64,000 nucleotides of DNA. Source: a bacterium. Its GTDB lineage: Bacteria > UBP6 > UBA1177. A program made the position numbers and the translations under genes. Shown here one piece after another: positions 5,033 to 61,133 of this stretch; position 1 is the stretch's first letter; each line of letters starts with the position of its first letter. The notes below the pieces were generated by a model. It was not told the DNA's origin. It saw nothing but the letters and a program-made list of their open reading frames with translations, and did no database searches. The stretch lies in NCBI GenBank assembly GCA_017961325.1, contig JAGCXM010000028.1, positions 21,781 through 85,780 on the forward strand. The letters run 5' to 3'.

Positions 5033-5045
5033 TCTTGCCGCTGAT

Positions 5046-5121: not shown

Positions 5122-5138
5122 TCTTTGAAAATTGAGGC

Positions 5139-5215
<77 letters not shown>

Positions 5216-5249
5216 TTTTCAATTTTTTTCCGTAAAATTTTTTTGATTT

Positions 5250-7106: not shown

Positions 7107-7125
7107 GCTTTCAAATAAAAAGAAA

Positions 7126-7201
7126 TGGAGCTACCGAGGTGACTCGAACACCCGACCTGCTGATTACGAATCAGCTGCTCTACCGACTGAGCCACGGTAG
7201 C
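7126..7201 (-). tRNA. tRNA-Thr (anticodon CGT)
   Basis: Reverse complement GCTACCGTGGCTCAGTCGGTAGAGCAGCTGATTCGTAATCAGCAGGTCGGGTGTTCGAGTCACCTCGGTAGCTCCA; anticodon loop TTCGTAA. Confidence 0.85.
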
Positions 7202-8451: not shown

Positions 8452-10941
<2,490 letters not shown>

Positions 10942-10952
10942 CGGAGGGAAAA

Positions 10953-18510: not shown

Positions 18511-18530
18511 GGAATCTCCGAAAAATTATT

Positions 18531-35014: not shown

Positions 35015-35028
35015 TGTTTTTTTAGAGG

Positions 35029-35916: not shown

Positions 35917-35931
35917 TTTTTAGTTTCCGAA

Positions 35932-36639: not shown

Positions 36640-36645
36640 CGGAGG

Positions 36646-39133: not shown

Positions 39134-40501
39134 TTAAAAACGCTGTCTTACGCAGATGACTTTAAAAGAGTTTTCTTTTGAAAGTTCCATTGTTGATCCG
39201 TATGCCATACGTATTGCCCATACTTTTTCCCCATTGTTGGTATAGGAAGTCGAACTCCAGAAAGTTTCAGTATCCATTCCTTCAAAATCGGATGCCGGAT
39301 GGAATTTATAATAATTGATCATAGTTTTAAGTTCGTTTATATTAGGAAGTCTCCAATCGTAAAATCCTGCGTATCCGCCGATTTTTCTGCAGTATTTAAG
39401 AGCGCTTTCCCAATCCTGATTGCCGCCGAACGATTTCGTCCAGACAAGGTTGTTGACGGAATCGGTAACTATTTCCTCTCCTTCTGTTCCGGATACTTTA
39501 AACGAAGGAGTTTTTAATGTTCCTTCTCCCCTTACACAACGGACGTAAAGGTAGGAAAGAGAACCGGTTGTTTTGTTTCCATCGATTTTACCCTGCAAAA
39601 AATCTAAAGCCCAGTTCTTGTCGGTATCATAAAGGTAAACATCTGAAGTCCAGAAAGGCCTTCCCGGAGTGTTCGGGAATATTTCACTGTCAATTGACGG
39701 ATTCGTTTTGCCGTAATCCACAATGGTTCCCAATTCAGCCGGAGTCGGAAGACGCCAGTCGCTGTAGCCTGCATAGTTGAGATTGTTGCAGTAGCTGACT
39801 GCTTCTGAAGGTGCACAGAGCGTTCCTGAAGAGCCGGAGCAGCCGGAGTATGTCTCCGGAAGGTTACGCTGCCAGACCAAACCCGTGATATTGTCCGTTA
39901 CCAAATCTTCCGTCGTGGTGAAACTTCTTTTTACGCAGTAACCTTTCTCTGCATACTGGGTATCCTGTCCGAAAAATGGTTCTGACGGTGCAGGACATTC
40001 TATTTCGTCATATTTGTCGAAACATTTGCTCTGACCCGTACAGAGAACTTCTGCGGAGTTGGTTTCCTGAATTTCTTGATTTGCAACATCGTCGTCAGAT
40101 CCTGAATCGGCATCATCATTCGTGTCCGAATCGGTATCATTGTCGGAAACTGAATCCGCATCGTTATTAGCGGAATCGGAATCGTCAGGGCGTTCTTCTT
40201 CCGAGTCTGCATCGCCGGAAGGTTCGCCTGAATCGGCATCATCCTCTGAAACGGTGTCGGATTCATCGCTATCCGTATCGGTGTCGTTGCCGGAATCGGT
40301 GTCTGTCTCCGTGTCGTCACCGGTGTCTGCCTCCGTGTTGTCATCGGCAGTATCCGCATCGTCGTTTTCGTTTACGGAATCGGTGTCGCTGACCGCTTCA
40401 TCATCATTTTCCGGGTAATCGGTTTTGTTTCCGTCGCTGCATCCGGTAAAAAAGATAGCCGCGCAAAGAATCAAAAAGGAAATTGTTGCTTTAAGTTTCA
40501 T
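39134..40501 (-). CDS. Lipoprotein with an acidic D/S/T-rich low-complexity region and two C-terminal Fib_succ_major/DUF1566-type domains
   Basis: Lipobox FFTGCS; WRLPTPAELGTIVDY and WRLPNINELKTMINY motifs. Confidence 0.65.
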   Translation of the reverse strand: MKLKATISFLILCAAIFFTGCSDGNKTDYPENDDEAVSDTDSVNENDDADTADDNTEADTGDDTETDTDSGNDTDTDSDESDTVSEDDADSGEPSGDADSEEERPDDSDSANNDADSVSDNDTDSDTNDDADSGSDDDVANQEIQETNSAEVLCTGQSKCFDKYDEIECPAPSEPFFGQDTQYAEKGYCVKRSFTTTEDLVTDNITGLVWQRNLPETYSGCSGSSGTLCAPSEAVSYCNNLNYAGYSDWRLPTPAELGTIVDYGKTNPSIDSEIFPNTPGRPFWTSDVYLYDTDKNWALDFLQGKIDGNKTTGSLSYLYVRCVRGEGTLKTPSFKVSGTEGEEIVTDSVNNLVWTKSFGGNQDWESALKYCRKIGGYAGFYDWRLPNINELKTMINYYKFHPASDFEGMDTETFWSSTSYTNNGEKVWAIRMAYGSTMELSKENSFKVICVRQRF

Positions 40502-46287: not shown

Positions 46288-49077
46288 ATGTTTGGTCGTT
46301 TTTTATTTGTTGCAATCTTATTTTTGTTTCCGTTCGGGATTTTCAGCGGAGATATAACTTTTTCCGATTTTTACCACTTTTCTTCGCGTTCATGGAATGC
46401 CGTTTCTGGGCTTCCCCACAACAATGTCTCATCTTTTTACCGTGATGAAAAAGGTCTGCTCTGGGTAGGAACGGTCGAAGGGCTAGTCAGAATCGATTCT
46501 AAATCGTCCAAAATTTTCAATACAAGCACGACTCGTGCTATTTTGAGCAATAAAATCAACGACTTGTCAGGATGCTACGGCAAAATTTTCGTTGCGACTC
46601 CGATGGGGGTTTCAGAAATCAGTGATTCAGGCTTGAAGATTTCTAAGCTCGCCGAAACGCACGCCATTTTTGATATCGAAACACTCACCGACTGTACTCT
46701 CTTTGCGACGAACGGCAAAGAAATAATGATGATAAAATCAAATAAAATCAGTAAGTTGAGCGAAATAACGGCATTCCCTGAAAGTCCCGTTTCGGTTCTT
46801 TTTTCAGACGGTTTCGCACTTTATGCCGGTTTTGAAAACGGCGAAATCAGAATTTTCGGCGAGGACGGTTTCTCAGGAAACCTCTGCGGCGCAAATTCGT
46901 CGCCGGTTACTGCCGGAAGAGCAAAAGATGGAAGAATTTTTGCCGGAAACGCCGACGGAACCGTTTTTGAACTGAAAAACGGAAAGTGCTTGAAAATTGC
47001 AAGAACCGAATCGCACAAGGCGGTAACTTCACTCGATTTTCAGGAAAAAACAGTTGCTTTTGTCTCCGACGGGGCACTTTTCTTTGCCGAAGGCGGTGCT
47101 CTGAAGCCGTGCGGCAGTTTCTGCGCAGACAACGGTTCCATTTCAAAAGTTATGCTTGACGACGATTTCCTGTGGCTTTCCGGAAGCCGCGGCGTAACTT
47201 TGTTTTATCCTGGAAAATTCATAACTTTGGGACGTGAATCGGGGCTTTTTTCCGAAAAGGTCTATGCCGTTCTCGAAGATGATTCCGGCAGAATCTGGGC
47301 CGGCACACGCGGCGGCGGACTTTTTGTCTACGAAAACGGAAAATTCAGATACCTGAAGGACAGAAAGGGTGATATCGGGCGTTTGGTAGGAGGATTGTTT
47401 CAGAACGACGACGGCAGCATACTAGTCGGAACGACTTCCGGAGTGATTTCGTTTTTGCCGGAAAAGCCCAGTGTTTTCAAGAAGATGAAAGTTTCTCGCA
47501 ATGGAAGTATGAATGCCGTCAGTGTTATTTTCCGTGACAGAAAATCGCGTCTCTGGGCAGGCGGCAGCGGCGGTGCTATTTATCTTGATACCAAAGACGG
47601 CTGGCATCTTCTCCGTAAATTCGGCGACGAATCCGATTTGGTTTCGGCAATCGCTCAGGATAGTCGCGGAAACCTTTGGTTCGCCGCCTCGAAGGGTTTG
47701 TGGCAGCTTGACAGAAATGATGAATTTCATGAGATAAATCAAGGTGTTGACGGAAATATGCCTGTGAGTCTCTTTGTCGATGAAAACGATGTCGTTTTCG
47801 TCGGTTCGATGCACCGCGGCCTCACTTTGATTTTTCCCGATCTTAAATCCGCACAGCTTGATTCACGGAAAGGGCTCTGCAGCGACACGATTCTGGGAAT
47901 GACGGCAGATGAAAGCGGAAATCTCTGGTTTTCAAGCACAAACGGCATTTTTTCCCTTTCAAAACAAGAGGTTGTCGAAGCGGCAAAAAGCGAGAACGGT
48001 TCGCTTTCATGCACTCCTTTCGATTCTACTGACGGAATCCGCCGGCCTGAATCGACGGGAGGAGTCCAGCCTTCTGTTTTGAAGCGCAGAAACGGCGATC
48101 TGTGGTTCCCGACCCTTGAAGGAATCGCGGTTCTCAGACAAAACGGGAGAAAACCTGTTAAATTTGATTCGCTGGTACCTGAAGAAAATCCAACTATTAT
48201 TGTGAAAAGTGAAGAAAAATCAAATTTTTCCGGAATTTTCGTGATTTTGGCGGTTTTTGCTTCGGTAATTTTGGTTTTTGCGGTGAAAAAAGCTTTCAGA
48301 CCTCGCCTCCGGACCCTCTCAAGTGTGGGAGACCTCACCCCTGAACCACTCTCCGGTGTGGCGAGGGGAGAAGACCTCACCCCTGAATCCATCTCTGAAG
48401 CGGTTAGGGGAGAAAAAAATGAGGTCGCCGAGCCTGTGGAACAGAGTCAAGATAATTCTGAAAATATTGAACCAGAAACTGAATTTCTTGAAATTATTGA
48501 AGAAATTGATGATGAACCTCACCCCCGGCCCCTCTCCAGTGTGGCGAGGGGAGACGAGCTTGTTTCCGAACCTGTTTCTGAAGCGGCGAAGGATGAAGAC
48601 CTTATTTCTGAGCCTGTTTCTGAAACGGCAAGGGGAGATGATGAAGAACTTTTCGATCCTGCGGCCGACGAGGTTGAAGAAAAGCGGAAATATGAAGGCT
48701 ATCAGCTGGATGAAGAGATCGCAGCAGCTTATGCCGCCGAGGCGAGAGAGTTGATGGAAAAAGAAAAACTCTATAGAAATCCATATCTTACGATGCCGGA
48801 GGTTGCAAAGAAACTGAAGCTTTCGACAAATACGCTTTCTCAGGTTCTGAACGGCTACTGCGGTCAGACTTTTTACAATTTCATAAATACATACCGGCTT
48901 GAGGAAGTTATTGCGATGATGCATGATCCGAAATGTGACGGCAAAAGCATTCTGAAACTTTCGATCGAAGCCGGCTTCAATACGAAATCGACTTTCAACA
49001 ACATTTTCAAAAAGCGTACGGGACTCACTCCGGCGGAATTCCGCAGAAACATCGGAAATCAAGAAAAAAAGCAATAA
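46288..49077 (+). CDS. One-component transmembrane regulator: two-component-regulator beta-propeller (Reg_prop/Y_Y_Y-like) sensor domain, one TM helix, an acidic repeat-containing linker, and a C-terminal AraC-family HTH
   Basis: N-terminal propeller repeats (LWVGT..GL, LWFAASKGL, LWFSSTNGI); TM IFVILAVFASVILVFAV; C-terminal AraC HTH (...LSIEAGFNTKSTFNNIFKKRTGLTPAEFRR). Confidence 0.7.
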   Translation: MFGRFLFVAILFLFPFGIFSGDITFSDFYHFSSRSWNAVSGLPHNNVSSFYRDEKGLLWVGTVEGLVRIDSKSSKIFNTSTTRAILSNKINDLSGCYGKIFVATPMGVSEISDSGLKISKLAETHAIFDIETLTDCTLFATNGKEIMMIKSNKISKLSEITAFPESPVSVLFSDGFALYAGFENGEIRIFGEDGFSGNLCGANSSPVTAGRAKDGRIFAGNADGTVFELKNGKCLKIARTESHKAVTSLDFQEKTVAFVSDGALFFAEGGALKPCGSFCADNGSISKVMLDDDFLWLSGSRGVTLFYPGKFITLGRESGLFSEKVYAVLEDDSGRIWAGTRGGGLFVYENGKFRYLKDRKGDIGRLVGGLFQNDDGSILVGTTSGVISFLPEKPSVFKKMKVSRNGSMNAVSVIFRDRKSRLWAGGSGGAIYLDTKDGWHLLRKFGDESDLVSAIAQDSRGNLWFAASKGLWQLDRNDEFHEINQGVDGNMPVSLFVDENDVVFVGSMHRGLTLIFPDLKSAQLDSRKGLCSDTILGMTADESGNLWFSSTNGIFSLSKQEVVEAAKSENGSLSCTPFDSTDGIRRPESTGGVQPSVLKRRNGDLWFPTLEGIAVLRQNGRKPVKFDSLVPEENPTIIVKSEEKSNFSGIFVILAVFASVILVFAVKKAFRPRLRTLSSVGDLTPEPLSGVARGEDLTPESISEAVRGEKNEVAEPVEQSQDNSENIEPETEFLEIIEEIDDEPHPRPLSSVARGDELVSEPVSEAAKDEDLISEPVSETARGDDEELFDPAADEVEEKRKYEGYQLDEEIAAAYAAEARELMEKEKLYRNPYLTMPEVAKKLKLSTNTLSQVLNGYCGQTFYNFINTYRLEEVIAMMHDPKCDGKSILKLSIEAGFNTKSTFNNIFKKRTGLTPAEFRRNIGNQEKKQ
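48301..48660 (+). repeat. Degenerate ~39-42-bp tandem units inside the regulator CDS, encoding (S/T)EP(L/V)S.(V/A)ARG(E/D)(D/E)L. Best units at 48333-48370, 48375-48412 and 48517-48553.
   Basis: Units of the form cctcacccc-N-ctctcc-N-gtgtggcgaggggaga, closely related to the gyrA terminator hairpin at 13485-13527. Confidence 0.7.
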
Positions 49078-49257
49078 ATTACAACAAAAAAATATCTGTT
49101 TTTAAGAAAAAAATAAAAAATAAACAATTACTTGATTTTATTTGCGAAACATGGTATTCCTCTACACAGACGGACGTTTTTTGCCAAAGTCCGGTGTTCT
49201 TTTCTACACAGGCGGACGAAATTTATTTGTATATTAAGTAAAAAGTTGCGTTGATGT

Positions 49258-49995
49258 TTGACGGAGGTGGACGTGAGACAGACAAAAGGCTTTTCATTGA
49301 TCGAATTGATGATTGCTTTGGGAATAGTTACGATTCTGGCGACTATTGCCGTTCCCAGAGTTCAAGTCTGGAATGCCAGAAACCGCGGTTTGCAGTTGAT
49401 TATGGAGATCGTCTCGGATTTTTCAAAGGCAAAGTTGATAGCCGTATCTACGGTTGTTAAAAACGATGGCGGGTCCGAAGGAAAAATCGAGGTTCCATCC
49501 GGTAACGGTTCCAATACCGTCAACCTTGGCACGCGGCCTCAGGTTGCAATGGTTTTCTGGTCAGATGGATATAAGATTCTGCAAAAGGCATCACTGAACA
49601 GTAATTGGGAAAACGCTGAAAGTCTTAGAACACAGAAACTGCTTGACTATGTCCATATCGCAACCTTTGCTGACAGCAACATTAACGAGAATATCGTAAT
49701 GAGCAAGGGTTTTTCAAATGCGAAATCCATCGTTTTTACTTCAACCGGATTTGTCAAAAATCAGGACGGTGGCATGATAGAACCGAAACCGAGCAGTGAT
49801 TATGAGTGCGGCGATGTAGATACTAAATTGGCGTCGATTTTTTCAGCTGTTGTGAAAGCCAAGATCAGCGGCACGACAGATGCGATTTGTTACAGGGGTA
49901 TTGTAGATCAGGCCGGGAGATACAACATTTGCATGACTTTTGCACAGGGAGGCGCTGATTGTGATTTCTCAAAAGGATCCGTTGTTGAAATGTAG
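49258..49995 (+). CDS. Type IV minor pilin, FimU/GspH-like (prepilin-type N-terminal cleavage/methylation domain). Probable true start is GTG 49273, giving leader MRQTKG|FSLIEL.
   Basis: KGFSLIELMIALGIVTILATIAVP class-III signal peptide; RBS GGAGG at 49263-49267. Confidence 0.75.
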   Translation: MTEVDVRQTKGFSLIELMIALGIVTILATIAVPRVQVWNARNRGLQLIMEIVSDFSKAKLIAVSTVVKNDGGSEGKIEVPSGNGSNTVNLGTRPQVAMVFWSDGYKILQKASLNSNWENAESLRTQKLLDYVHIATFADSNINENIVMSKGFSNAKSIVFTSTGFVKNQDGGMIEPKPSSDYECGDVDTKLASIFSAVVKAKISGTTDAICYRGIVDQAGRYNICMTFAQGGADCDFSKGSVVEM

Positions 49996-50004
49996 GAGAA
50001 AAAT

Positions 50005-50586
50005 ATGAAAAAGATTAAAGCTTTTACTTTGATAGAGGTTATGGTTTCTATTTTTGTTTTTTCTTCTGCCATGATCGGATTTATGGCGTTTCATGTTTAT
50101 ACCAAGTCGGTTCTGTTCGAGCAGGAAATGTTCCAGGTGGCAAATGCGCTCGCTTCAAACATGCTTGAGGAAATAAACGCCATGTCTTACAGCGGTTTCC
50201 GCGAACATTTTATAACAAACGCACCTCTAAAAGAATGGAGAGAGGACAAAGAGTTTGTTGATTCAAATGGTGAGTCTTCCGGTACATCTTCCGGTGCATT
50301 TGGCAAGGGTTTTGTAGCAAGTCCTTTTAATTCTTTCGGAAAGCCGTCGCCTGATGCCAATGATAACTACCGTTTTTACAGAGCTGTAAAAGTTACGGCG
50401 TACGCAGAACGAACACAGAGGTTTGTTCAAAAAGGTACATATCTTTCCACGCTTTATGAAGTTGAAGTGCGTGTAGCGTGGCCGAAAAGTGATTATCCTG
50501 CGCACAGTTGCGATAAATCCGGTTTTAATGACAAATGTGAGTCTATAACTATTCCTTTGATAAGATCGGCCGAAAACTATAGATGA
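50005..50586 (+). CDS. Type IV minor pilin, PilV-like
   Basis: MKKIKAFTLIEVMVSIFVFSSAMIGFMAF prepilin N-terminus (G|FTLIE with Glu5). Confidence 0.75.
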   Translation: MKKIKAFTLIEVMVSIFVFSSAMIGFMAFHVYTKSVLFEQEMFQVANALASNMLEEINAMSYSGFREHFITNAPLKEWREDKEFVDSNGESSGTSSGAFGKGFVASPFNSFGKPSPDANDNYRFYRAVKVTAYAERTQRFVQKGTYLSTLYEVEVRVAWPKSDYPAHSCDKSGFNDKCESITIPLIRSAENYR

Positions 50587-50599
50587 GAAGGAGTGATAT

Positions 50600-51706
50600 A
50601 TGGGTAAAAACGGTAATATGAAAGCTTTCACCATTATCGAACTTATGGTGAGCATATTTCTTACGATATTAGTAGTAGCCTCATTTTACAAACTCTACAA
50701 TATAGCATCAAGGGAAGAACGTTCTTCCGCAATCAGAATCTCAATCAATGTTGCCGGTGAGCAGATGCTTGATGCGATTTCAAATGCAATCAGATTTATA
50801 GGCTTGAACGGCAAACTCTCCGATTTGGACTTTTATAATAGCGGGACAATTAGTTCTGCCAGGCCGTTAATAAGGATTGCGGAGCAAGATCAGTTCGAGT
50901 TTCTCTCACCTTACGGCGGACCTGTAACCAAGCTGGCCAAGGATGCTGAAGGAACGTATCCGAACTGCACTTTCACCTTGGTCAGCAGTACCGCCCTCAG
51001 TAATAAAACAAAATCCTTTTTCTTTCACAATCAGGATGGAATTTTTGAAACAGAAGAAGACGAGGACTTAACTGTAAGCATAAGCAGCAGCGGTGAACTC
51101 GTTTTTACAAACGGATCAGGTTTTAAAAATGCTCCGAGAAACGATTTGGACGGTACGGAGTGCAGTGCTGTTTTTCCGTACGGGACGTTAGTTTCAGGAC
51201 AGGATAATTTTTTTATGCTGAAGTACAACGATGCTACCGGGCAGCTTAAACTCTGCTTTACTGATAAAGAAAGTATGATGACCTCGGCAGACTGTATTAA
51301 TGGATTTAATGAAGAAAAGGACACATCGGTTGTAAATTTTATGCCAGATGCAGATAAGACTTACGATATGCCCACATTCTTCATTCAGTATCTCACTGAA
51401 ACCAAATCCGGAAATGATCTCGTTGTAAAATGGCAGAACGGTACCTTGGGTACCTCGGAGGGCGAAGATCTCAGAAAAGATATTGTCGCAGTCAGGTTCG
51501 GATTTGTTCTTATTTCGGAAAGAACAAGAAATGAGGGAAACTATCCTGTAAATTTAAATTTTAGCGAGGAATACTGCATTTTCGGTGACGAGAGATACAA
51601 AACAAAAGATTGTTATACTCTTAGAGACCCGAACAAAACTGCTTATGTTTTTCGGCGTGTAGTATACCTTGCAAATCATCGTTTGCTGAAAGATTTCAAT
51701 AATTGA
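50600..51706 (+). CDS. Type IV minor pilin, PilW-like
   Basis: MKAFTIIELMVSIFLTILVVASFYKLY...; 368 aa, typical PilW size. Confidence 0.7.
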   Translation: MGKNGNMKAFTIIELMVSIFLTILVVASFYKLYNIASREERSSAIRISINVAGEQMLDAISNAIRFIGLNGKLSDLDFYNSGTISSARPLIRIAEQDQFEFLSPYGGPVTKLAKDAEGTYPNCTFTLVSSTALSNKTKSFFFHNQDGIFETEEDEDLTVSISSSGELVFTNGSGFKNAPRNDLDGTECSAVFPYGTLVSGQDNFFMLKYNDATGQLKLCFTDKESMMTSADCINGFNEEKDTSVVNFMPDADKTYDMPTFFIQYLTETKSGNDLVVKWQNGTLGTSEGEDLRKDIVAVRFGFVLISERTRNEGNYPVNLNFSEEYCIFGDERYKTKDCYTLRDPNKTAYVFRRVVYLANHRLLKDFNN

Positions 51707-51714
51707 GGTGAAAA

Positions 51715-52323
51715 ATGCTGAAAATCACGTTTCATTCAAGAGGTGCAGCGCTTTTTGTAAGCGTTCTGATGACATTGAGCCTTTCGATTATAGCTTTAGC
51801 AACCATGTCGAAACTTTCCGAGCTTTCCCACACGGGAGTCGGTGATTCGGAGGAGAGGCGGCTTCAGATATATGCTTTTTCTGCGATGAATATCGTAAAC
51901 GGTGAGCTCAGACAGCTTCTTGATTCTACTCTGGATTTTGCAGACTTTTATTCGATCGGAGCCGGTGAAACCGTATCTATAAATGTTACCAACAGGGATT
52001 TCAAATACTATCCGTTAGACACCGGTAAAGGCGGCAAGGAAACGAAATTTGCATATCGTGCGATTGCGAGAAAGCTCACGACTAACAGCGATGCATTGCT
52101 TTACGGCATAGTAGGTAAATTTAAATTTAATTTAAACAAAGATGCCTGCTACGATATCATGGTGGATGTAATACCAGTTACATTTATCGGAACTAGCACC
52201 AATAATGTAATAGAAGTGGAAGAATCCGGAGACAATCCGGATCAATATGTTTTAGGTAAAATGAAGACTGTCGGGCAGATAAGCTGCTTTACAAAAGGAG
52301 AAATTGATCATACAGGTAATTAA
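51715..52323 (+). CDS. PilX/GspK-like minor pilin (PilX N-terminal-type hydrophobic segment, no Glu5)
   Basis: MLKITFHSRGAALFVSVLMTLSLSIIALATMSKLSEL. Confidence 0.65.
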   Translation: MLKITFHSRGAALFVSVLMTLSLSIIALATMSKLSELSHTGVGDSEERRLQIYAFSAMNIVNGELRQLLDSTLDFADFYSIGAGETVSINVTNRDFKYYPLDTGKGGKETKFAYRAIARKLTTNSDALLYGIVGKFKFNLNKDACYDIMVDVIPVTFIGTSTNNVIEVEESGDNPDQYVLGKMKTVGQISCFTKGEIDHTGN

Positions 52324-52337
52324 ATAAGAGGTGTGAT

Positions 52338-55300
52338 ATGAAACGGTTTGTAACACAAAACAGAATTTTAGCAGTTTTCGTTTCGGCGCTGTTGCTTCCG
52401 GTTTTGCTGGTGGCGGTGACGGAATCGGAGTTGGATGATGTTGCGGCTATGATTACGGTTGCCAAAAAAGCTGCCAATACCATTTTTATTCTCGACACCT
52501 CCGAAAATATGAACAGTTTTGCGTACAGCGACTATATCGAAACTTGTGCAGACGCTTATGCTAACGCTGAACATGCACATGAAATCTGTCTTAATTCTTT
52601 GGAACAGTGCCTGGAAGTAAAGGACGCAACTGATGGTTTCTGCGGCAGTGTCGACTGTACGCAGCTTGCGAACGGTTGCGATGAGATTAAGACGACGCAG
52701 AAAAGAGTTGAAAATTACTGCAATGATTTGAAGGCTGTTTACGCTTTCATGGATGATCCTGATCATCAGCCGGAAAACAGACAGCTGACCAGATCAGGAA
52801 CCGACCCGAAGAGAGAGAGGTTTGTCGGTCCTTGGAATCCTGACAGTTTCTATACGCAAGATCTCTGTTTTTACGACTGGACGAACGATACCAACGGTGA
52901 CGTACTGAACGGAACTACTTCCGAGCACTGGTCTAATCCGTCCTGCGACTATGATCCGGAACATTGCCATAATGTCGGAACATCCAAAGAAAAAGACCCG
53001 AAAGGTGCAACGTTGTCTGAAACCGCTTATTACGGCAGTGACCGCAGGGACTGGGACTGCATAACCGACGGTAACGACAATATGGACAACGGTCAGAGTT
53101 TTTCATCTTTGAAGGGCGGCGTCAGCGGGCACTGGCTCAACTGGAGATACGCGACATCCCTTGATGCCGTTAAAATTCTTCTTGCGAATGTCCACCAGTT
53201 TTCATATCCTCCGAGGTGGAGAGGCGAAAACAAGTGTATCCAATACAATTACAAGCCGGTCAAACCTGACATAACTCAGTGTGAAGAAGGCTACACTAAA
53301 GAGGTCGTTAATGATGCAACGGGCGAGGTCCGCTGTAAGGATTCAGACGGTAACACGGACAAATCTTATTACAAGAAGATATGTTTCATAAGCCCTGAAC
53401 CAACTAACGGCGGATCCTATTTTGATACGGCGTATCTGGACAAAGAGGATGAAGAGCGGTCTAAAATCCTTAATGCTATGCGTACGCTTGTTTCGGGTTC
53501 ATGGTCGGCTGACGATAAAGGCGAACACGAAAATGAGGTTTGTGCAAACTATGACTTGTTAGCCGATTTTTCGTTCTATGACAAAAAAGACGGTCCGGGT
53601 TTGCATTTTGATAAAGGAACATCCGCACATCCGGCACCAGTCAGTGCGGAAACGGCCGGTTGTCACAAGTGTATGAAGTTTAACGGTGATACCGAGGATC
53701 CGGCTTTTGAAGAAATGGATTGCGAGGAGTTTGAAGTCGATGCAGAATTCGATAATAACATACCGAGAGAACAAAATTTCGACGGTGAATATACTGCCAC
53801 ATATAGTCAGAAATGCTGCAAAACTTCTAAGTGTACAAATCCAAAGTGCAGGGACAACGATCTTTGCTGCAAGAATAATAGTACAGCTTATCCGGACGAA
53901 ACTTCCGAAGGATACAAAACCTGTCTTAAAGACGGCGAATATCAGTGCAACCTCGGTTTTTACAGCGAATTCGACCAGGATAAGACCCACTGCTGCGGAT
54001 CGGTGGAATGTGTAAACGGTGAAACAATCGAAGAGTATCTGACCGATACCACGACCGGATGCCAGATCTGCTCGATCGGTTCAGTAATGACGGAAAAAAA
54101 CGAAACCTCTACTTTTGTCAGCGAACCTGTTCTTCCTAATCCAGGGGCATATATGTATGATGAGAACATAGAGTTTAAAGTTAAAATCGCATCCATGGAT
54201 GGTGGGGATAACATTGAAGATATGACGGTAACGCTTTATTACGCCTGCAATAACGATACCGACTCGTGGCATGAGATGGCAAGTTTTACCTGTTACAGAG
54301 ACAGTGATCCTGACTGCGAAGACTATTATGAGAATGATAAGGAGATAATGACTCCCAAACTTTCCGGTTGTGAAACTGAAGGTTATAAGGTCAAGCTCGA
54401 AGTTTCTACTACGGGAAGATACTGCAAGATAGAAAGCAGCGAAAGTTTTTCAGTCTCATTCAAATACGAACTTCCGGAAGGTAACTTCTCCGGTAAAAAA
54501 GAGTGGCAGAAAGTATTAGATCCCACACAAGATTACTACATGATTCTAAAAAATCAGGCCGGCGGTGATCAGAGTGTGGTAGTTCATGAATATGAGTGCA
54601 AACAGGCTTTCTATCATACTCAGGCGTATACCGATTCCAGTTCCTGTCCTAGGGACGCGAACAAAATCGTTCAAAAATTTCACGAGAAGGGATATACGGA
54701 TGTCAAATACTGCGATCCGGATTACAGGAGAGAGGAAGTCATCATGAAGCAAAGCGGCTGCGGTTTTGAAATATCATATTTCTGTTCATACCTTTGCCGT
54801 GACGAAGTCACTTACAACGAACCCTGGGCGTGCATGGCTACATTCTTTCAGATGGACGAATACGAGAGAGGCGGTATTGAGAAATGTTCACAAGAGTGTC
54901 AGAGGGAATCGTATATAAGTCCGAATCCTTCAGGAGGAAAAACTAACAATGTCGAAGAATGCTGCCGTTGTATAGATCGTGCTTATTATTATGAGGCAGG
55001 CTGGTATCAGGATGAACCGTTTTTCGAGCCGGTGCAGGGTGTTTCCATGCCGGATGCTCCCGGTAGCAGTACAAAAAAGACTTACCATTGCGCCGTCAGT
55101 GCCATCAAGGGAAGTGACACTCAGGTCGGATTCCATGCCGAAATTATAAACGGACATACCAATGAAGTTATGAACAGTGTGACCGGCCAATATGACGGAA
55201 CATACCTCCTCAGTCCGTATGTCCTTGATGATGAAACCCTGTTCTCGCCGTATGATGAGTGGATTTCCGCTAGAACTTTCATTGAAACGAAATCAAAAGA

Positions 55301-58300
55301 CTTAGGTATCAGAGATACGACCATCAGCGGTTTCAAAACATCGAGCTCGGCGGAGAGAAGGAATGTCTGCATATACGATCTTTTGGATGACTGGGGCGGC
55401 GATCTCTGCAGCATATGCAGCACGGTTTCTTGCGGCAACTGCCTAGATCCTAGTATAAGTGTTCCTGATGACAAGTGTACCGATCCGAATTTCTGGATGA
55501 AAGTTCCGCGAAGCGAAGGCGGCGAGCTGATTTTCTCGAAGGAACAGATTGTCGATCCGGATTCAAGAGCCCGTTTCCAGAAGGCTATAAAAGAATTGAA
55601 AGCCGTGGGCGGTCCGACACTGGGTGAAACACTTTACGATGCATGGAGATTCCTCGGCGGAATGTATGCCCTGCACGATCCCAAACATGTTGTCGGTAGT
55701 GAAGAAGGACCTTATGAATCTCCGTTTGCTAACCAGGAACCGGAGTGTTTCTCAAACGAGGTCGTTGTTCTTTCGGGCGGTCAGGCACAGTTCGACCACA
55801 ACAACAGAATCGAAAAAGTGGAGGGCATTAACGTAACCTGTCCTTCAATGTCGCAGGTTAGCGAGATACCATGCGTCGCGCCTACCGAAGATGACTATTA
55901 TGACAACAGCGCGGATGGAGGCAGAGGTGGTTATGTGAATAGAAACAAACCTTATTACGAAACTGACTGGTATCAGTCATCCATTATGAATGTGGCAAGA
56001 TTTGTAAAGACCCATTCTTTCTATAATACTAATGAGAATTGTGTCAAAACCGACCAGCTGAAGAGAAATATTTTGGGTTATGAGGGAGATCCTGATGATA
56101 CAAAGTGTATGGAAACAATTGCTGGTGAAGGAAACAACAAGGCTGTTATAAACAGGATCCACTCCGGAGCTATCGGAGAATGGACTCTTTCGGCTCTCTA
56201 TAACAAACCAGACTTTGAATATCTGGAAAAAATCACGAAGAAGTATCCGACTGATGATGAAACGGCGACAGATGGCAAATACTGTTCGCTTACACTCGGC
56301 AAAGACAGTGTAAACGACTGTTCGTTCAGAAATATTACGGATCTTCTCTCCGATTTGTTGACGTTGCCTCAGCCTACCGATGTCGAGTCCGGTCGTCCGC
56401 ACTGGACATCTTCCCTTGTCCAGCCTTTCGATGTCGAGGAAAAATACCGCGGTCCGGAAGCTTATGTAGCCGGAGCTGTTCCCATAGCATCGGCAACGAG
56501 CAGATTCTGGTTCGGAAACCTCAAAAAATATATGGTCGACGAAGGAAATAGCGATTGCAACAAAACTATTTCGTGTGAGGGTTATGCGGAAAATAATGGC
56601 CAGTGCGGTACTGGCTGCGGAGGTTGGCAGAAACAGACATTCGCATCTTCGGCAGACTGTTTTGTCGATAATGACAATGGGGTTGGTGATATGCCTGGCG
56701 ATGACAGCGAGGATTTCAGAAGACTGCTTGCCGGCGGAGCCGCAAGAAAACTTTCAGATAAACTGAGAACCGAGACGTGCAGCAATCCTCCCTGCTTTAA
56801 GAAAGTAAGCACAAGGACGATATACTACGATGCGGACAATGCTCCGAATACTGACCTTAAGCTACTTAAAGATATCAGCGACGGCGACATGAGCATACTT
56901 CTCGACGAATTCGGATTGACCGGAGGAGCCGCTACAGCTGAAAAGATTTTCGATTATATGTACGGTTATGATTCGTTTGCCGATAATGTCGATCAGCAGA
57001 GGAAACTAAGATTCGGTTACGATAATAGTCCTACCGGCACGTCCATAACAGTAAGGGATCCGTTGAACATCGATTTCAACAACAAAAAGTATGTAACAAT
57101 CCGTCCGGTTCTTCTCGGCGCAATCGTTCACTCAAAACCGGTTGCGGTTTATTACGGCAATAATACCAAGACAAGAATTTTCGCAGGAGCCAACGACGGT
57201 ATGCTGCATGCTTTTGACGAAAGCGGAAATGAACAATGGGCTTATATCCCGAGCAATGTCCTTCCGTCCGTCCGCAAGATTGCCAACAATTCGAATTCCA
57301 TGAATTTCAAGGCTATGGTTGACGGTCCGATCACATTCTTCCACATTGATCAGAGCCATGACGGAATTGTTGATGAAGGCGAGAAGGCTTTCCTTATTTT
57401 CGGTTACAGGCGTGGAGCGAAAGGCTATACCGTAATTGATGTCTCCGAACCGGATAGCCCGAAATTCGTTCAGAATATCAACACGAACGGCGGTTACAGT
57501 TTCGGAAAGGCTCTCATATTCAGGAAGTGTCCCGGTGTTTGCAATTATGCGGAAGAACTTGACTATTATCTTGCCGTTCCCGGCGGTTACGACGATTGTG
57601 AAGACGGTGACGATCCTGACTGCAAAATGCCAGAGGACAGCTCAAATGAGGGCGGTAACGTTATGAAAGGCAACAAATTCGCTATTTATCCTTTCAATAA
57701 GGAACAAAACAAATTTTCAACGAGTGCAGGGTCATTTTTCAATTATGAGCGTGATTCCGAAGGTGAAACAAACAATCAGAAGAAATGGCTTGTCGCTTCG
57801 TTTGCCGCTGAACCTTTTGCAATAAACACCAAAGGCAAAAGATCAATCAATACCGAATTCGTCTACTTTACCGATCTTACCGGAACTGTATTCAGAGTCG
57901 ATGTCAGAGACGGAAATATACATGACTGGAAAGATAAAACAAAAGTCGTTTTTGCTAAGAGAAATTCCGCCGGCGATACGGGAGGCGTAAAACTCTTTGA
58001 ACAGGGCAAGAGTTATGCCGGCAACAATTTATTCCCGCCTTTGGAAATATACAACCCCGGAGGCGACAATAAGGAGGGACTGGTTCCGATCCCCGTCGTA
58101 TTCGGAGACGCTTCGTGGCCGAAAATTGATACTGAAAAAGCTTCAATGACCATTTTCTACGACAAGCAGCCTAAGGAGGATGAAGATTATCAGGCAAGTT
58201 ACAGCGGTTACAACTCGAATGATTATGAAACCGCAGATCTTAACAACAACAACCAGTTCCATTCCGGCAAGAGCGGTTGGAGAATAGATTTCGGCGGCTC

Positions 58301-58715
58301 AGAAGATTCGAAAGGTGAAAAAGGCATCACGGAGCCGATGATACTTTACGATCTTTACGGCAGCAACGGAAGTTCAGACACGTATGATTACTCGCTTGCA
58401 TGGAACACATATGTTCCGAAAAAGAGTACTGATTGCATGAATTTCGGAACGAGTTTCAACTACGACAGACATGTCGTGGACGGTTCGAATATTTTGAAAC
58501 TGACAGAAATGTCCAGTACTGTCGGCGAATGGGATCCTTCGAAGTGCAAAGACTCTTCGACGCAGGGCATAAGTGTTGCGACTGCGGTAGGAGTGGTTGC
58601 AACGAGTGAGGGATACGATCTTGCTTTCGGAGCGGGAGCAGACATATACAGAAAGCCGGGAATTACTGTCGTTATCAGTACGACCCGTGTTCTTAAATGG
58701 TATGAGCTTTACTAA
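52338..58715 (+). CDS. pilY1: Giant (2125 aa) PilY1-like pilus tip adhesin: N-terminal vWA domain apparently interrupted by a ~1000-aa Cys-rich insertion, plus a C-terminal PilY1/PilC beta-propeller domain
   Basis: Signal peptide; vWA start TIFILDTSENM (MIDAS DxSxN); later vWA elements AVGGPTLGETLYDAW and EVVVLSGGQA about 3.1 kb downstream; C-terminal RIFAGANDGMLHAFDESGNEQWAYIPSNVLP (PilY1 hallmark) and DQSHDGIVDEGE Ca-loop-like motif. Confidence 0.8.
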   Translation: MKRFVTQNRILAVFVSALLLPVLLVAVTESELDDVAAMITVAKKAANTIFILDTSENMNSFAYSDYIETCADAYANAEHAHEICLNSLEQCLEVKDATDGFCGSVDCTQLANGCDEIKTTQKRVENYCNDLKAVYAFMDDPDHQPENRQLTRSGTDPKRERFVGPWNPDSFYTQDLCFYDWTNDTNGDVLNGTTSEHWSNPSCDYDPEHCHNVGTSKEKDPKGATLSETAYYGSDRRDWDCITDGNDNMDNGQSFSSLKGGVSGHWLNWRYATSLDAVKILLANVHQFSYPPRWRGENKCIQYNYKPVKPDITQCEEGYTKEVVNDATGEVRCKDSDGNTDKSYYKKICFISPEPTNGGSYFDTAYLDKEDEERSKILNAMRTLVSGSWSADDKGEHENEVCANYDLLADFSFYDKKDGPGLHFDKGTSAHPAPVSAETAGCHKCMKFNGDTEDPAFEEMDCEEFEVDAEFDNNIPREQNFDGEYTATYSQKCCKTSKCTNPKCRDNDLCCKNNSTAYPDETSEGYKTCLKDGEYQCNLGFYSEFDQDKTHCCGSVECVNGETIEEYLTDTTTGCQICSIGSVMTEKNETSTFVSEPVLPNPGAYMYDENIEFKVKIASMDGGDNIEDMTVTLYYACNNDTDSWHEMASFTCYRDSDPDCEDYYENDKEIMTPKLSGCETEGYKVKLEVSTTGRYCKIESSESFSVSFKYELPEGNFSGKKEWQKVLDPTQDYYMILKNQAGGDQSVVVHEYECKQAFYHTQAYTDSSSCPRDANKIVQKFHEKGYTDVKYCDPDYRREEVIMKQSGCGFEISYFCSYLCRDEVTYNEPWACMATFFQMDEYERGGIEKCSQECQRESYISPNPSGGKTNNVEECCRCIDRAYYYEAGWYQDEPFFEPVQGVSMPDAPGSSTKKTYHCAVSAIKGSDTQVGFHAEIINGHTNEVMNSVTGQYDGTYLLSPYVLDDETLFSPYDEWISARTFIETKSKDLGIRDTTISGFKTSSSAERRNVCIYDLLDDWGGDLCSICSTVSCGNCLDPSISVPDDKCTDPNFWMKVPRSEGGELIFSKEQIVDPDSRARFQKAIKELKAVGGPTLGETLYDAWRFLGGMYALHDPKHVVGSEEGPYESPFANQEPECFSNEVVVLSGGQAQFDHNNRIEKVEGINVTCPSMSQVSEIPCVAPTEDDYYDNSADGGRGGYVNRNKPYYETDWYQSSIMNVARFVKTHSFYNTNENCVKTDQLKRNILGYEGDPDDTKCMETIAGEGNNKAVINRIHSGAIGEWTLSALYNKPDFEYLEKITKKYPTDDETATDGKYCSLTLGKDSVNDCSFRNITDLLSDLLTLPQPTDVESGRPHWTSSLVQPFDVEEKYRGPEAYVAGAVPIASATSRFWFGNLKKYMVDEGNSDCNKTISCEGYAENNGQCGTGCGGWQKQTFASSADCFVDNDNGVGDMPGDDSEDFRRLLAGGAARKLSDKLRTETCSNPPCFKKVSTRTIYYDADNAPNTDLKLLKDISDGDMSILLDEFGLTGGAATAEKIFDYMYGYDSFADNVDQQRKLRFGYDNSPTGTSITVRDPLNIDFNNKKYVTIRPVLLGAIVHSKPVAVYYGNNTKTRIFAGANDGMLHAFDESGNEQWAYIPSNVLPSVRKIANNSNSMNFKAMVDGPITFFHIDQSHDGIVDEGEKAFLIFGYRRGAKGYTVIDVSEPDSPKFVQNINTNGGYSFGKALIFRKCPGVCNYAEELDYYLAVPGGYDDCEDGDDPDCKMPEDSSNEGGNVMKGNKFAIYPFNKEQNKFSTSAGSFFNYERDSEGETNNQKKWLVASFAAEPFAINTKGKRSINTEFVYFTDLTGTVFRVDVRDGNIHDWKDKTKVVFAKRNSAGDTGGVKLFEQGKSYAGNNLFPPLEIYNPGGDNKEGLVPIPVVFGDASWPKIDTEKASMTIFYDKQPKEDEDYQASYSGYNSNDYETADLNNNNQFHSGKSGWRIDFGGSEDSKGEKGITEPMILYDLYGSNGSSDTYDYSLAWNTYVPKKSTDCMNFGTSFNYDRHVVDGSNILKLTEMSSTVGEWDPSKCKDSSTQGISVATAVGVVATSEGYDLAFGAGADIYRKPGITVVISTTRVLKWYELY

Positions 58716-58725
58716 GGAGGACAAT

Positions 58726-59508
58726 ATGAGAAAAATTTTAGTACTTATTTTTGTCGTTGCTCTGAATTTCACACTTTTTGCTGACAGAACGGCCGGAAAA
58801 GGCAACTCATATTCGGAATTCCCGTTTATTGTTCTTGTCGGACAACTTGTTGAAATCAATCCGTTTTCTGTTGTTTTTGAAAACACTTTGTATGAAGCGA
58901 ATACCGACACTGAAAAAATAGGCAGACTAATAGAAGTCTTTGAAAAGGATACCGATTTCAGATCCCACGGGATGGCCAATGCTCTTCGTGCGGCTAGCGT
59001 GAAAAACGGAAAAATGAGGCTTTCCTTCTATGTGGACAATATTTTCAGAATTTTCAGCAACGATGCTTCAACTTATGTACGTTATCTTCCCCTTTTACAC
59101 CTTTTCGAAAACAATATCAAAGAAGTAATGCTTACGCCGGAGCAGGTAGAGAGAATCAAAAAGATTTCGGCTGAATATGTCCTCAATCTTCCGGCAGCTA
59201 AGGAACTTATCAAAAATTCCTGGCTTGCAGGAGTTTTCCAGATCAGTCCGACTGACGGTAAACTTGTTTATAAAAGTGCGAGATTCTTTAAAGATTTTGA
59301 TGAACTCAACCAGAGTGAGTGGGCGAGGAACTACAGAATTCCCGATATTGTCAGGAGAGGGATGACCGTTTCAATGACGAAGGCGATTTTTATAGGTCAT
59401 GAATCCGAAAACGTTAAGAGCGAAGAGAAGGAAAAAGGTGAAAAATCTGGACAAAATAAAAAACAGTTCGATAATAGAAGCGGTGCTCCTGCCGGAAGGG
59501 AGAAATAA
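58726..59508 (+). CDS. Secreted hypothetical protein in the PilY2 position of the minor-pilin operon. Start taken at ATG 58726, preceded by AAGGAGG; the ORF track begins at 58597, overlapping pilY1.
   Basis: Signal peptide MRKILVLIFVVALNFTLFA; operon context. Confidence 0.55.
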   Translation: MRKILVLIFVVALNFTLFADRTAGKGNSYSEFPFIVLVGQLVEINPFSVVFENTLYEANTDTEKIGRLIEVFEKDTDFRSHGMANALRAASVKNGKMRLSFYVDNIFRIFSNDASTYVRYLPLLHLFENNIKEVMLTPEQVERIKKISAEYVLNLPAAKELIKNSWLAGVFQISPTDGKLVYKSARFFKDFDELNQSEWARNYRIPDIVRRGMTVSMTKAIFIGHESENVKSEEKEKGEKSGQNKKQFDNRSGAPAGREK

Positions 59509-59509
59509 A

Positions 59510-59980
59510 ATGACTGCATCATCCAAAAGTTTCAAAGGATTTACAATGATAGAACTTTTGATGGTTCTTGCCATAATCGGTGTCATTGTGGCCTTTGCGG
59601 TTCCTATTTTTAGCTATTTTTCAGACAGTTCGAAAGTTGACGAGTTGAAGTCCAAGATGTTTTTATTGGCAGGAGCACAGGAAAAATATTTTATAAAAAA
59701 CGCTACATACGCTCCTTCATTACAGTCACTTGGAGGCGCAAATACGTTCGGAATCAGTGCTGATGACGGAATGGATTTCGCAACAGGCGTTTATATTAAA
59801 AAAGGCGGCGAAATGTTCTACTGGATTTACGGCAAACGCTGTATAAACAACACTCCGCACTGCTGGCTTTATATTCCGTCTTTGGTGTCCAAACAAACGA
59901 CGGATGTTACTAATTTCATAGAATTGAAATCCGGTGTGAAGGTAGCTTACGACATACCGAATAATTGCGTGTGTGAATGA
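59510..59980 (+). CDS. Type IV pilin (PilE/PilA-like). Start ATG 59510, immediately after the previous stop.
   Basis: Leader MTASSKSFKG|FTMIELLMVLAIIGVIVAFAVPIF; C-terminal Cys pair (disulfide loop). Confidence 0.75.
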   Translation: MTASSKSFKGFTMIELLMVLAIIGVIVAFAVPIFSYFSDSSKVDELKSKMFLLAGAQEKYFIKNATYAPSLQSLGGANTFGISADDGMDFATGVYIKKGGEMFYWIYGKRCINNTPHCWLYIPSLVSKQTTDVTNFIELKSGVKVAYDIPNNCVCE

Positions 59981-59991
59981 GGGAGAAATTT

Positions 59992-60390
59992 ATGAAAAGA
60001 AAAGGTTTTACGCTTATAGAAGTAATGATTGTGCTTGCCATTGTTGCTGTTCTCTCAGCTGTTGCGATTCCTCTTTATACGGGTTACACCAACAGAGCTA
60101 AACAGGTAGAGGCTGAAGAACAGCTGATGAATATAGCTGCGATCGAAGCAGATTATTTCAACAGTTTCAGAAAATATTTGATAGGTTCTTGGAAAACTAC
60201 TGATGAGGATACGACAATTCTTACCGATTATTACGGTGCCAAGCTTAAGGGAGATTATTACACAATAGACATAACGAACCTCAACGGCTTTACAGCAAAG
60301 GCCTGCGTATGTTACACTGGTCAAACATGCTGTGATTTAAGTTGCACTGTTGATAAAAGCAATTCTAAACCAGACTGTAAAAAAGAATAA
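59992..60390 (+). CDS. Type IV major-pilin-like protein (PilA-like). Start taken at ATG 59992 (MKRKG|FTLIEV); the ORF track begins at 59977, overlapping the upstream stop.
   Basis: FTLIEVMIVLAIVAVLSAVAIPLYTGYTNRAKQ canonical pilin N-terminus; C-terminal Cys residues. Confidence 0.8.
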   Translation: MKRKGFTLIEVMIVLAIVAVLSAVAIPLYTGYTNRAKQVEAEEQLMNIAAIEADYFNSFRKYLIGSWKTTDEDTTILTDYYGAKLKGDYYTIDITNLNGFTAKACVCYTGQTCCDLSCTVDKSNSKPDCKKE

Positions 60391-60404: not shown

Positions 60405-61133
60405 ATGAGAGAAAAAATGTTACTCAGCTTTTTTATGATTACAGCCCTTTTCTTTTTTGTTTCCTGCGGTGAAGAGACTGACTCGGACAGTCTCAGCATC
60501 AGCAGCAACGGAACTGAACTTAACAGGGAGGAACTGAGAAAAGCGAGATTCAAACCTGCTCCGACTATTTTGAAGAAGAGTCCGCTCCGCAAGATGAATA
60601 CGCAGACTTGGGGTCCGGTTTCAACGGGGCAGACACAGTGTTTCGATCATGAGAAACAGATCGAGTGTCCGGCATCCCGCCAAAATCGTTTTTTCTTTCA
60701 GGACAGAAGCAGAATCGGAACGCGTTCTCTGACTGCAACGGACAGCCAGACGATAACGGATGACGTTACGCACCGCATTTGGAGCAGACACATAAAAGAA
60801 AATGTAACGTGGTATGAAGCCAAATATTATTGTGAATCTTTGAGAATGGCGGGCAAAAGATGGCGTCTTCCGACTACTGCCGAGCTTCGTTCGATAGTGA
60901 ACTACGGACAGATAGATCCTGCGACAGACGCTATTTTTTACCAAGGTATCGATAAAACCTCTCTTTCCAAACAGTTCTGGGCATCGGATCATTCCCGTTT
61001 AAATTCGGAAACATCGGACGGCGATGAAAAACAGTATGCTGCGGCATGGATAATCAATTTTTTTGACGGATTTGTCGAGTATACATCCCGTTACAATGTT
61101 TATAACGTACGTTGTGTAACAGAAGCTGATTAG
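60405..61133 (+). CDS. Lipoprotein with a Fib_succ_major/DUF1566-type domain
   Basis: Lipobox FFVSCG; WRLPTTAELRSIVNYG motif. Confidence 0.6.
   Translation: MREKMLLSFFMITALFFFVSCGEETDSDSLSISSNGTELNREELRKARFKPAPTILKKSPLRKMNTQTWGPVSTGQTQCFDHEKQIECPASRQNRFFFQDRSRIGTRSLTATDSQTITDDVTHRIWSRHIKENVTWYEAKYYCESLRMAGKRWRLPTTAELRSIVNYGQIDPATDAIFYQGIDKTSLSKQFWASDHSRLNSETSDGDEKQYAAAWIINFFDGFVEYTSRYNVYNVRCVTEAD

Follow-up and report, generated by a model that had tools for sequence, protein, structure and literature searches.

A conserved minor-pilin, PilY1-family and pilin gene array, probably a type IV pilus tip module, in an uncultured rumen bacterium of the UBP6 lineage

The tip complexes of type IV pili (T4P) govern which targets bacteria attach to and how they sense surfaces. 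In this study, we have analysed a stretch of 64,000 nucleotides (hereafter the window) from contig JAGCXM010000028.1 of the assembly GCA_017961325.1, positions 21,781 to 85,780, assigned in GTDB to UBP6 (UBA1177), and we describe an array of genes for minor pilins, a giant PilY1-family protein and pilins that lies within it. All positions given below are those of the window. A check of the open reading frames (ORFs) at 49.2-60.4 kb recovered the eight plus-strand frames of a preliminary description of this DNA, all of them where it had placed them, and we refer to these as g1 to g8:

49273-49995 (+): g1, minor pilin at the FimU/GspH position, 240 aa from GTG (245 aa if the start is the TTG at 49258)
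50005-50586 (+): g2, minor pilin at the PilV/GspI position, 193 aa, the smallest of g1-g4
50600-51706 (+): g3, minor pilin at the PilW/GspJ position, 368 aa, the largest of g1-g4
51715-52323 (+): g4, putative minor pilin of PilX/GspK type, 202 aa
52338-58715 (+): g5, giant PilY1-family protein and predicted tip adhesin, 2125 aa with 76 Cys and a Sec signal peptide
58726-59508 (+): g6, secreted or periplasmic orphan, 260 aa
59510-59980 (+): g7, type IV pilin, 156 aa
59992-60390 (+): g8, T4a-type pilin, PilE/ComP-like, 132 aa

The gaps between these genes measure 1-14 bp and a GGAGG or GAGG Shine-Dalgarno (SD) sequence precedes every start, which bears out the picture of eight co-directional genes with short junctions. 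For g1, the GTG at 49273, with its conserved ribosome-binding site (GGAGG-N6-GTG), is the most likely start, rather than 49258. The g5 product is identical and its neighbours are the same in several independent metagenome assemblies (six contigs read), and the ORFs are therefore no artefacts of assembly.

Prepilin N-termini are present in five of the eight products (g1, g2, g3, g7 and g8), and the Pfam N_methyl hidden Markov model (HMM; PF07963, cut-off 21.2 bits) matches all of these above its cut-off except g3. Within the first four genes, the values are E=2.2e-7 for g1 (leader MRQTKG/FSLIE, the slash marking the end of the leader), E=7e-6 for g2 (MKKIKA/FTLIE) and a sub-threshold 17 bits (E=0.0044) for g3 (...NMKA/FTIIE). 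Phe at +1 and Glu at +5 are nevertheless invariant in the orthologue alignments of all three (17 orthologues for g1, 18 for g3). The fourth product is of a different kind: the PilX_N model (PF14341), named as a check in the preliminary description, leaves only a trace (E=0.075), and the leader, ...HSRG/AALFVSVLM, has no Glu at +5. This residue is found in none of 20 orthologues of g4, in which G10, A12, F14 and L18 are invariant, as is the G/A-x-L-F leader. Judged by its sequence, such a Glu5-less leader is a hallmark of PilX/GspK. The four class-III leaders of the preliminary description are thereby firm for g1 and g2, sub-threshold with an invariant motif for g3, and of another form in g4.

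The same description had put these genes in the order FimU/PilV/PilW/PilX. The layout stands; the individual identities are another matter. When the g1 profile was compared with PDB sequences, it matched solely the N-terminal helix of solved type IV pilins (~1e-8), and the g4 profile matched nothing there. The NCBIfam PilV model TIGR02523 gives g2 23.6 bits (5.8e-5), below its cut-off of 52.2. In 73 orthologues scanned with Pfam, N_methyl was the one model to match, in 51 of them. Because no family-specific model matched and the shared N-terminal helix alone is recognised, the names of g1-g4 are positional, and as far as the sequences go they reflect only order, relative size and the pattern of Glu5.

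The fifth gene gives the array its clearest identity. A profile built from 14 sequences of the g5 family matches the structure of the C-terminal domain of P. aeruginosa PilY1 (3HX6) at E=5e-16, and in BLASTP the C-terminus of g5 aligns at E=5e-20 to a canonical PilY1 of 1183 aa that carries PF05567 (P0052). From these matches we take g5 to be a PilY1 homologue, as first proposed. Against the PF05567 HMM itself the outcome was divided: g5 alone stays below the cut-off (22.6 vs 28.1 bits, match at aa 1611-1706), while 12 of its 51 full-length homologues (1794-2182 aa) carry a precomputed match. The parts of the gene are as follows:

52479-52508 (+): first vWA strand and MIDAS motif, aa 48-57 (DTSEN in the window, DxSxS in the family)
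52515-55457 (+): Cys-rich, mostly beta insert inside the vWA domain, aa ~60-1040, 55 Cys
55458-56372 (+): remainder of the vWA domain, aa ~1041-1345, with GGxTLGETLYDAWR and ISGGQPQFD
57015-58712 (+): PilY1 C-terminal beta-propeller, aa ~1560-2125, the region of the PF05567, 3HX6 and P0052 matches
57348-57383 (+): EF-hand-like loop of 12 residues, DQSHDGIVDEGE, aa 1671-1682

Three elements of g5 are invariant or nearly so, namely DxSxS (aa 53-57), GGxTLGETLYDAWR (~1091-1104) and ISGGQPQFD (~1145-1153), and their sequences identify them as the three elements of the MIDAS (metal ion-dependent adhesion site) of a von Willebrand factor A (vWA) domain; D53 and S55 do not vary in 51 sequences of the family. 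The distance from the first element to the second is ~1040 residues in g5 vs ~260 in the canonical P0052. Since Pfam finds no vWA domain in g5 (and no insert domain either) at E<=1, the fold was examined on a structure model covering aa 1-1200 of a shorter homologue, P0043 (mean predicted local confidence, pLDDT, 78; predicted template-modelling score, pTM, 0.71). In this model the strand E53-60, equivalent to aa 48-57 of g5, has a pLDDT of ~80-85, and the insert is beta-rich, with a pLDDT of 75-90. Compact vWA domains are covered nearly completely by the model and E53-60 is the only strand ahead of the insert, so the model indicates that the vWA domain of this family is split by the insert. 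Of the 76 Cys in g5 the insert holds 55, and more than 40 Cys of the insert are invariant in the family alignments. A Foldseek search of the PDB with the 1200-aa model returned nothing significant for the insert, the weak jelly-roll or lectin-like matches having E>0.02.

In the propeller, the EF-hand-like loop (D1671-x-S-x-D-G-x-V-x-x-x-E1682 in g5) follows a pattern, D-x-[SN]-x-D-G-[IMV]-[IL]-x-x-x-E, that is kept in most of ~50 homologues and aligns with DANGDGIVD of P0052; it is predicted to bind Ca2+. The N-termini of PilY1 proteins are known to diversify, and long Cys-rich variants of vWA type occur in Myxococcota (PMC13190605). Because such variants have already been described, g5 is an extreme of a known trend and not a new kind of system, its 76 Cys standing against a median of 41 in the highest reported myxobacterial PilY1 clade.

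Behind g5, in the slot of PilY2, comes a small protein with a Sec signal peptide, no Cys and a Lys-rich tail. Conservation in the operon is highest for this g6, at 75-80% identity where g5 has 52-57%. All 71 of its homologues are ~260 aa long and annotated "hypothetical", and a profile search run exhaustively against 1.84 billion representative proteins yielded just 10 clusters, all of the same family. Pfam, NCBIfam and the PDB hold no match for g6. By these searches it appears to be a lineage-restricted orphan; the description of a small secreted protein in the PilY2 slot holds for secretion and slot, and the likeness to PilY2 is one of position.

The two genes that follow pass the N_methyl cut-off, in agreement with the two pilin genes first noted at the end of the array. 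In g7 (E=1.3e-6, leader ...SFKG/FTMIE), G-1, E+5, C118 and C153 are invariant among orthologues and the C-terminal Cys pair is conserved. In g8 (E=2.2e-9, leader MKRKG/FTLIEVMIVLAIV...AIPLYTGYTNRAK), the invariant positions are G-1, F1, T2, E5 and P22. In sequence, both resemble ordinary T4a pilins and conserve Cys towards the C-terminus. The g8 protein also passes the cut-off of the ComP_DUS family (29.1 vs 27.3 bits), and a gene for an extracellular nuclease of ExeM/NucH type lies at 18531-20846, which together would fit a competence module for DNA uptake with g8 as a ComP-like DNA-binding minor pilin. We consider this very improbable and have rejected it: g8 passes the ComP_DUS cut-off only by a narrow margin, in a family that takes in PilE-like pilin folds generally; the nuclease gene lies 30 kb away, outside the conserved block; and the dominant feature of the locus is the giant vWA adhesin with the lectin-like proteins described below.

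A g5 relative was found in 22 GTDB species loci, of which ~20 are informative, with g5 identities of 27-57%. The order across them is a Reg_prop/AraC regulator, g1-g8, a 242-aa Lcl_C lipoprotein and a giant ORF, and this gene order is conserved far beyond chance. The closest relatives of the operon are in UBP6_UBA1177 (57% identity in g5), in UBP6_UBA1209 and in rumen metagenome-assembled genomes (MAGs) labelled "bacterium" or "Spirochaetales"; no Fibrobacter was among the GTDB species loci found. The GyrB encoded in the window has 60-77% identity only to MAGs of unclassified "bacterium", and then <=56% (~54%) to proteins of Proteobacteria, Bradymonadales and Myxococcales type, and none of its 120 best matches, most of which have no source name, names Fibrobacter. 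The domain scan reported no match to Fib_succ_major, the paralogous domains in the flanks being Lcl_C (PF07603/DUF1566) and Cys repeats of DUF4215 type. UBP6, with the genus UBA1177, is a GTDB phylum reported from the rumen and separate from Fibrobacterota (PMC7820578). By these comparisons the host is best placed as an uncultured rumen bacterium of a UBA1177-like lineage of UBP6 and not as a relative of Fibrobacter. The Fibrobacter-like context of the preliminary description is therefore rejected, as the relatives of the operon and the GyrB matches point to UBP6-type rumen MAGs or unclassified MAGs, and the link that it suggested to the cellulose adhesion of Fibrobacter does not hold.

The operon had also been described as complete at 60390. 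It is not, because the conserved unit is larger both upstream and downstream, where it includes:

46288-49077 (+): membrane-anchored one-component regulator, 929 aa, Reg_prop and AraC-type helix-turn-helix (HTH)
49162-49218 (+): conserved candidate promoter/operator region with a direct repeat (copies at 49162-49176 and 49204-49218)
60405-61133 (+): Lcl_C (DUF1566) lipoprotein, 242 aa, lipobox FVSC
61145-64000 (+): 5' part of the gene for a giant secreted Cys-rich protein, which runs off the window (4265 aa in the full contig)

The tight co-directional array continues past 60390 into the Lcl_C gene, after a gap of 14 bp, and from there into the giant gene, after 11 bp, both with SD sequences. 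The conserved unit thus runs from the regulator through the giant gene, and within it the genes from g1 onward are predicted to be co-transcribed; scans for terminator and promoter consensus sequences gave matches at chance level only.

Of the 16 related loci that cover this flank, 15 (all but L012) have the regulator immediately upstream of g1. The protein begins with an N-terminal signal or transmembrane segment, followed by extracytoplasmic Reg_prop beta-propeller repeats (Pfam, 1e-23) and, at ~aa 655-680, a transmembrane helix; then come a cytoplasmic linker that contains repeats and, at the C-terminus, an HTH of AraC type (HTH_18, 1.5e-16; HTH_AraC, 7e-7). The intergenic region between it and g1 (49078-49272) is strongly conserved across species and contains two CTACACAGNCGGACG repeats as a 15-bp direct repeat, CTACACAG[A/G]CGGACG, at a spacing of 42 bp, together with a conserved CTTGATTTTATTT box. 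The two copies are the only matches to the 15-bp repeat in the whole window, where 0.41 would be expected and where at least two were seen in 3 of 100 shuffles. All nine aligned related loci conserve the second copy, and seven the first, which is degenerate in L013 and L015. The repeat pair is probably an operator or promoter element for the adjacent AraC-type regulator, and the repeats may be the site to which the regulator binds.

The acidic peptide that recurs in the cytoplasmic linker of the regulator (...LTPEPLSGVARGE...) is encoded by imperfect tandem repeats of 32/42 bp (48298-48414). In the distant relatives L020-L024 (ORFs at ~3140-6990), the regulator ORF has ~1250 aa and an Lgt-like N-terminus, apparently a fusion of lgt with the Reg_prop/AraC regulator, the alternative being two adjacent genes in the same frame. 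In L015 lgt lies directly ahead of the regulator (3103-3978), and in the window two Lcl_C genes are inserted between lgt (38272-39129) and the regulator.

On the other side of the array, the lipoprotein matches Lcl_C at 2.2e-21. Of the 17 related loci that reach past g8, 16 have its gene behind g8, and the other (L008) ends ~100 bp beyond g8. A giant ORF comes next in 14 of the 16 related loci with the Lcl_C gene; of the other two, L021 breaks off ~1 kb beyond that gene and L025 has no more than the first 1.5 kb of the giant ORF. In the window, the giant frame is open to the end, the length of 4265 aa coming from gene calls on longer contigs of the same organism, and the protein has weak matches to Lcl_C and DUF4215. 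It belongs to a cluster of Cys-rich surface proteins that also comprises a 455-aa Lcl_C lipoprotein (39134-40501, minus strand) and a 1857-aa lipoprotein of CGDG-type Cys repeats ending in Lcl_C (40514-46087, minus strand), with the 4265-aa secreted protein at 61145 to beyond 64000 on the plus strand. This is a striking investment in extracellular proteins of disulfide type for a strict gut anaerobe.

The invariant linkage to secreted giant proteins invites a further account, in which g1-g4 are the GspH-I-J-K of a pseudopilus like that of the type II secretion system (T2SS), serving as a secretion piston, and the giant Cys-rich and Lcl_C proteins are its cargo rather than co-adhesins. The size order and the Glu5 pattern of g1-g4 are the same as in GspH/I/J/K, the NCBIfam models for GspH, GspG, GspI and GspJ match weakly through the N-terminal helix, and Lcl of Legionella, with which the Lcl_C domain was founded, is among the substrates of T2SS. 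These matches, however, reach 14-34 bits where the cut-offs are 44-89 and extend over the shared helix only. The PilY1 homologue in the operon is a feature of type IVa pili (T4aP) and not of T2SS, and two T4a-type pilins follow it. The preliminary description had itself named GspH-K beside a gspD/E/F cluster as the identity that would speak against its own; no adjacent T2SS cluster was found, and gsp genes, among them gspC/D/E/F/L/M, were not detected in the window or the 10 kb upstream of it (74 kb). We have therefore set aside a T2SS pseudopilus operon, which the sub-threshold Gsp matches, the presence of PilY1 and the lack of a gsp cluster in the window make unlikely.

The genes for the T4P machinery were not found in this interval either, as had been noted for pilB/C/D/M-Q within the window, and the PilB/C/D/M-Q machinery would be encoded elsewhere in the genome. 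One could instead suppose that the array is an orphan or decaying set of pilus genes in a genome that has no functional machinery. Machinery at separate loci is, however, common, as in Pseudomonas, Neisseria and Myxococcus. Moreover, at most of the ~20 loci the operon genes are matched over the full length of the query (g5 of L022 is split over two ORFs, and several contigs are cut), with motifs kept at 27-57% identity in g5, and the promoter is conserved as well. As genes of full length, motifs and promoter are conserved across diverged loci, the operon appears to be under purifying selection, and a decaying remnant, which we reject for this pattern of conservation, is hardly credible.

We conclude, with a probability of roughly 75%, that the locus is a tip or priming module of T4aP type. 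Gene content, prepilin motifs, PilY1 homology, synteny, taxonomic placement and the vWA fold in the family are observed, and the first claim made for this DNA, that of an operon of minor pilins, PilY1 and pilins with the layout known from Pseudomonas and Neisseria, is supported by the prepilin motifs, the PilY1 homology and the gene order. PilY1 homology, T4a-type pilins and strong conservation disfavour all of the alternatives considered above. Several points nevertheless weigh against a tip module. For the proteins of the window, no PilV, PilW, PilX or GspH-K family model in Pfam or NCBIfam scores above its cut-off; the profiles of g1-g4 match PDB sequences in the N-terminal helix only, or not at all; and g2 and g3 carry Ala, not Gly, at -1. 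In g5, the MIDAS of the window reads DTSEN (DxSxN) where the family has DTSES (DxSxS), and the vWA fold was modelled on P0043, a homologue of 33% identity, and not on g5 of the window. The Asp-rich loop before the YxGD-like motif, which we take to be the Ca2+ site of P. aeruginosa PilY1, is degenerate throughout the family (INTxGK..., aa ~1825-1845 of g5), compared with DTNGDGFAD in canonical PilY1. The pilB/T/C/D/M-Q genes (ATPase, platform, prepilin peptidase, alignment complex and secretin) were not found in the 64-kb window and 10 kb upstream, and the co-transcription and regulation of the unit are predictions.

In systems already studied, minor pilins and PilY1 form a priming and tip complex, with the N-terminus of PilY1 at the extreme tip (PMC7541494; PMC13190605). 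By analogy with Pseudomonas and Myxococcus, g1-g4 would assemble in the inner membrane at the positions of FimU/PilV/PilW/PilX, with the Glu5-less g4 capping g1-g3. On top of this complex the C-terminal beta-propeller of g5 would dock, and the surface for adhesion at the distal tip would then be the N-terminal vWA/MIDAS, enlarged by its disulfide-rich beta insert of ~980 aa. The pilins g7 and g8 may link the tip complex to the fibre or form the fibre themselves, and g6 would act as a lineage-specific secreted accessory, probably a partner or chaperone of PilY1. The Lcl_C lectin-like lipoprotein and the giant secreted Cys-rich protein would be made from the same conserved transcription unit, and the membrane sensor/AraC regulator probably activates the CTACACAGNCGGACG-repeat promoter on an extracytoplasmic cue. 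It is a doubtful further step to regard the whole block as one dedicated adhesion organelle, in which the lectin-like giant proteins are carried by the tip complex or work together with it physically, and PilY1 has in g6 a new partner that is obligatory. If it were so, the structure shown at the tip would be a disulfide-rich assembly of megadalton size that binds glycans, turned on by an extracellular glycan signal from plant or host.

A tip module thus appears to be kept, strongly conserved, by an entire uncultured UBP6-like lineage of the rumen. The genes for an orphan partner, for surface proteins of lectin-like kind and for an extracytoplasmic sensor are fixed parts of the same operon. Few PilY1 proteins described are as large or as rich in Cys as the one found here, and the expansion lies inside the vWA/MIDAS domain, which sets a new extreme for the modular diversification of PilY1 N-termini and leaves the general picture of T4P unchanged. 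These proteins are testable candidates for the attachment of abundant, uncharacterised rumen bacteria to feed particles or host glycans.

Elsewhere in the window, four tRNA genes (Leu-CAA, Val-TAC, Asp-GTC and Thr-CGT; 3067-7201) adjoin gyrB/gyrA (8482-13481), so the region belongs to the core chromosome and not to a mobile element. On the minus strand, at 16168-20846, a gene for a 5'-nucleotidase/metallophosphatase (780 aa) lies beside that of the ExeM/NucH-like nuclease (771 aa), a pair whose sequences suggest scavenging of extracellular DNA. A co-directional cluster at 33932-38259 (plus strand), outside the conserved pilus block, encodes an uncharacterised protein of 360 aa, a protein with two FHA domains (Yop-YscD_cpl/FHA), one with ankyrin repeats and a fusion of a ParA/MinD-like ATPase with HTH_25 (RodZ-like).

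Among known systems, the fimU-pilVWXY1Y2E genes of P. aeruginosa and pilHIJK with pilC of Neisseria share with the UBP6 locus the succession of four minor pilins, a PilY1/PilC-family protein, a small gene and one or more pilins. In these operons too the fourth minor pilin is without Glu5, PilY1 combines an N-terminal vWA domain with a C-terminal beta-propeller, and the assembly machinery is encoded elsewhere, as it presumably is in UBP6. The differences are nonetheless clear. PilY1 of P. aeruginosa type has a length of ~1160 aa, and g5, with 2125 aa, is about twice that size because of the ~980-aa Cys-rich insert within its vWA domain. Where P. aeruginosa has PilY2 the UBP6 locus has the 260-aa lineage-restricted orphan g6, alike in position only; it has two pilins (g7 and g8) in place of one PilE; and the globular parts of g1-g4 are without detectable sequence similarity to FimU/PilV/PilW/PilX. 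Unlike Pseudomonas and Neisseria, it also includes a Reg_prop/AraC one-component sensor and appended genes for Lcl_C and giant proteins. The GspH-I-J-K set of T2SS, which is homologous to the core minor pilins of T4P generally, likewise has four genes, whose sizes follow the same pattern and the last of which is without Glu5; the UBP6 locus differs from it in having PilY1 and no gsp machinery nearby, and all its NCBIfam Gsp matches are below cut-off. Tip adhesins with arms inserted into a vWA domain are known as well (RrgA, GBS104, SpaC, PitA, Mfa5 and PilB of S. sanguinis). These belong to sortase, type V or Gram-positive T4P pilins, are not fused to a PilY1 propeller, and have inserts far smaller than that of g5.

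A further parallel in gene organisation is offered by the clusters of M. xanthus, especially cluster 3 with PilY1.3 of vWA type, which are self-contained sets of four minor pilins and PilY1 away from the main pil locus (PMC7541494; PMC13190605). Their PilY1 proteins also join vWA and propeller, with a trend to long Cys-rich N-termini in clades 1.5-1.7 (PMC7541494; PMC13190605), and the nearest named types to the host GyrB (~54%) are from Bradymonadales, Myxococcales and Proteobacteria. In contrast to M. xanthus, the host here belongs to a candidate phylum, UBP6, of the anaerobic gut, and its locus adds the orphan g6, the Lcl_C genes and the sensor/AraC gene to the common plan, with a PilY1 whose insert lies within the vWA domain and whose 76 Cys exceed the top clade median of 41.

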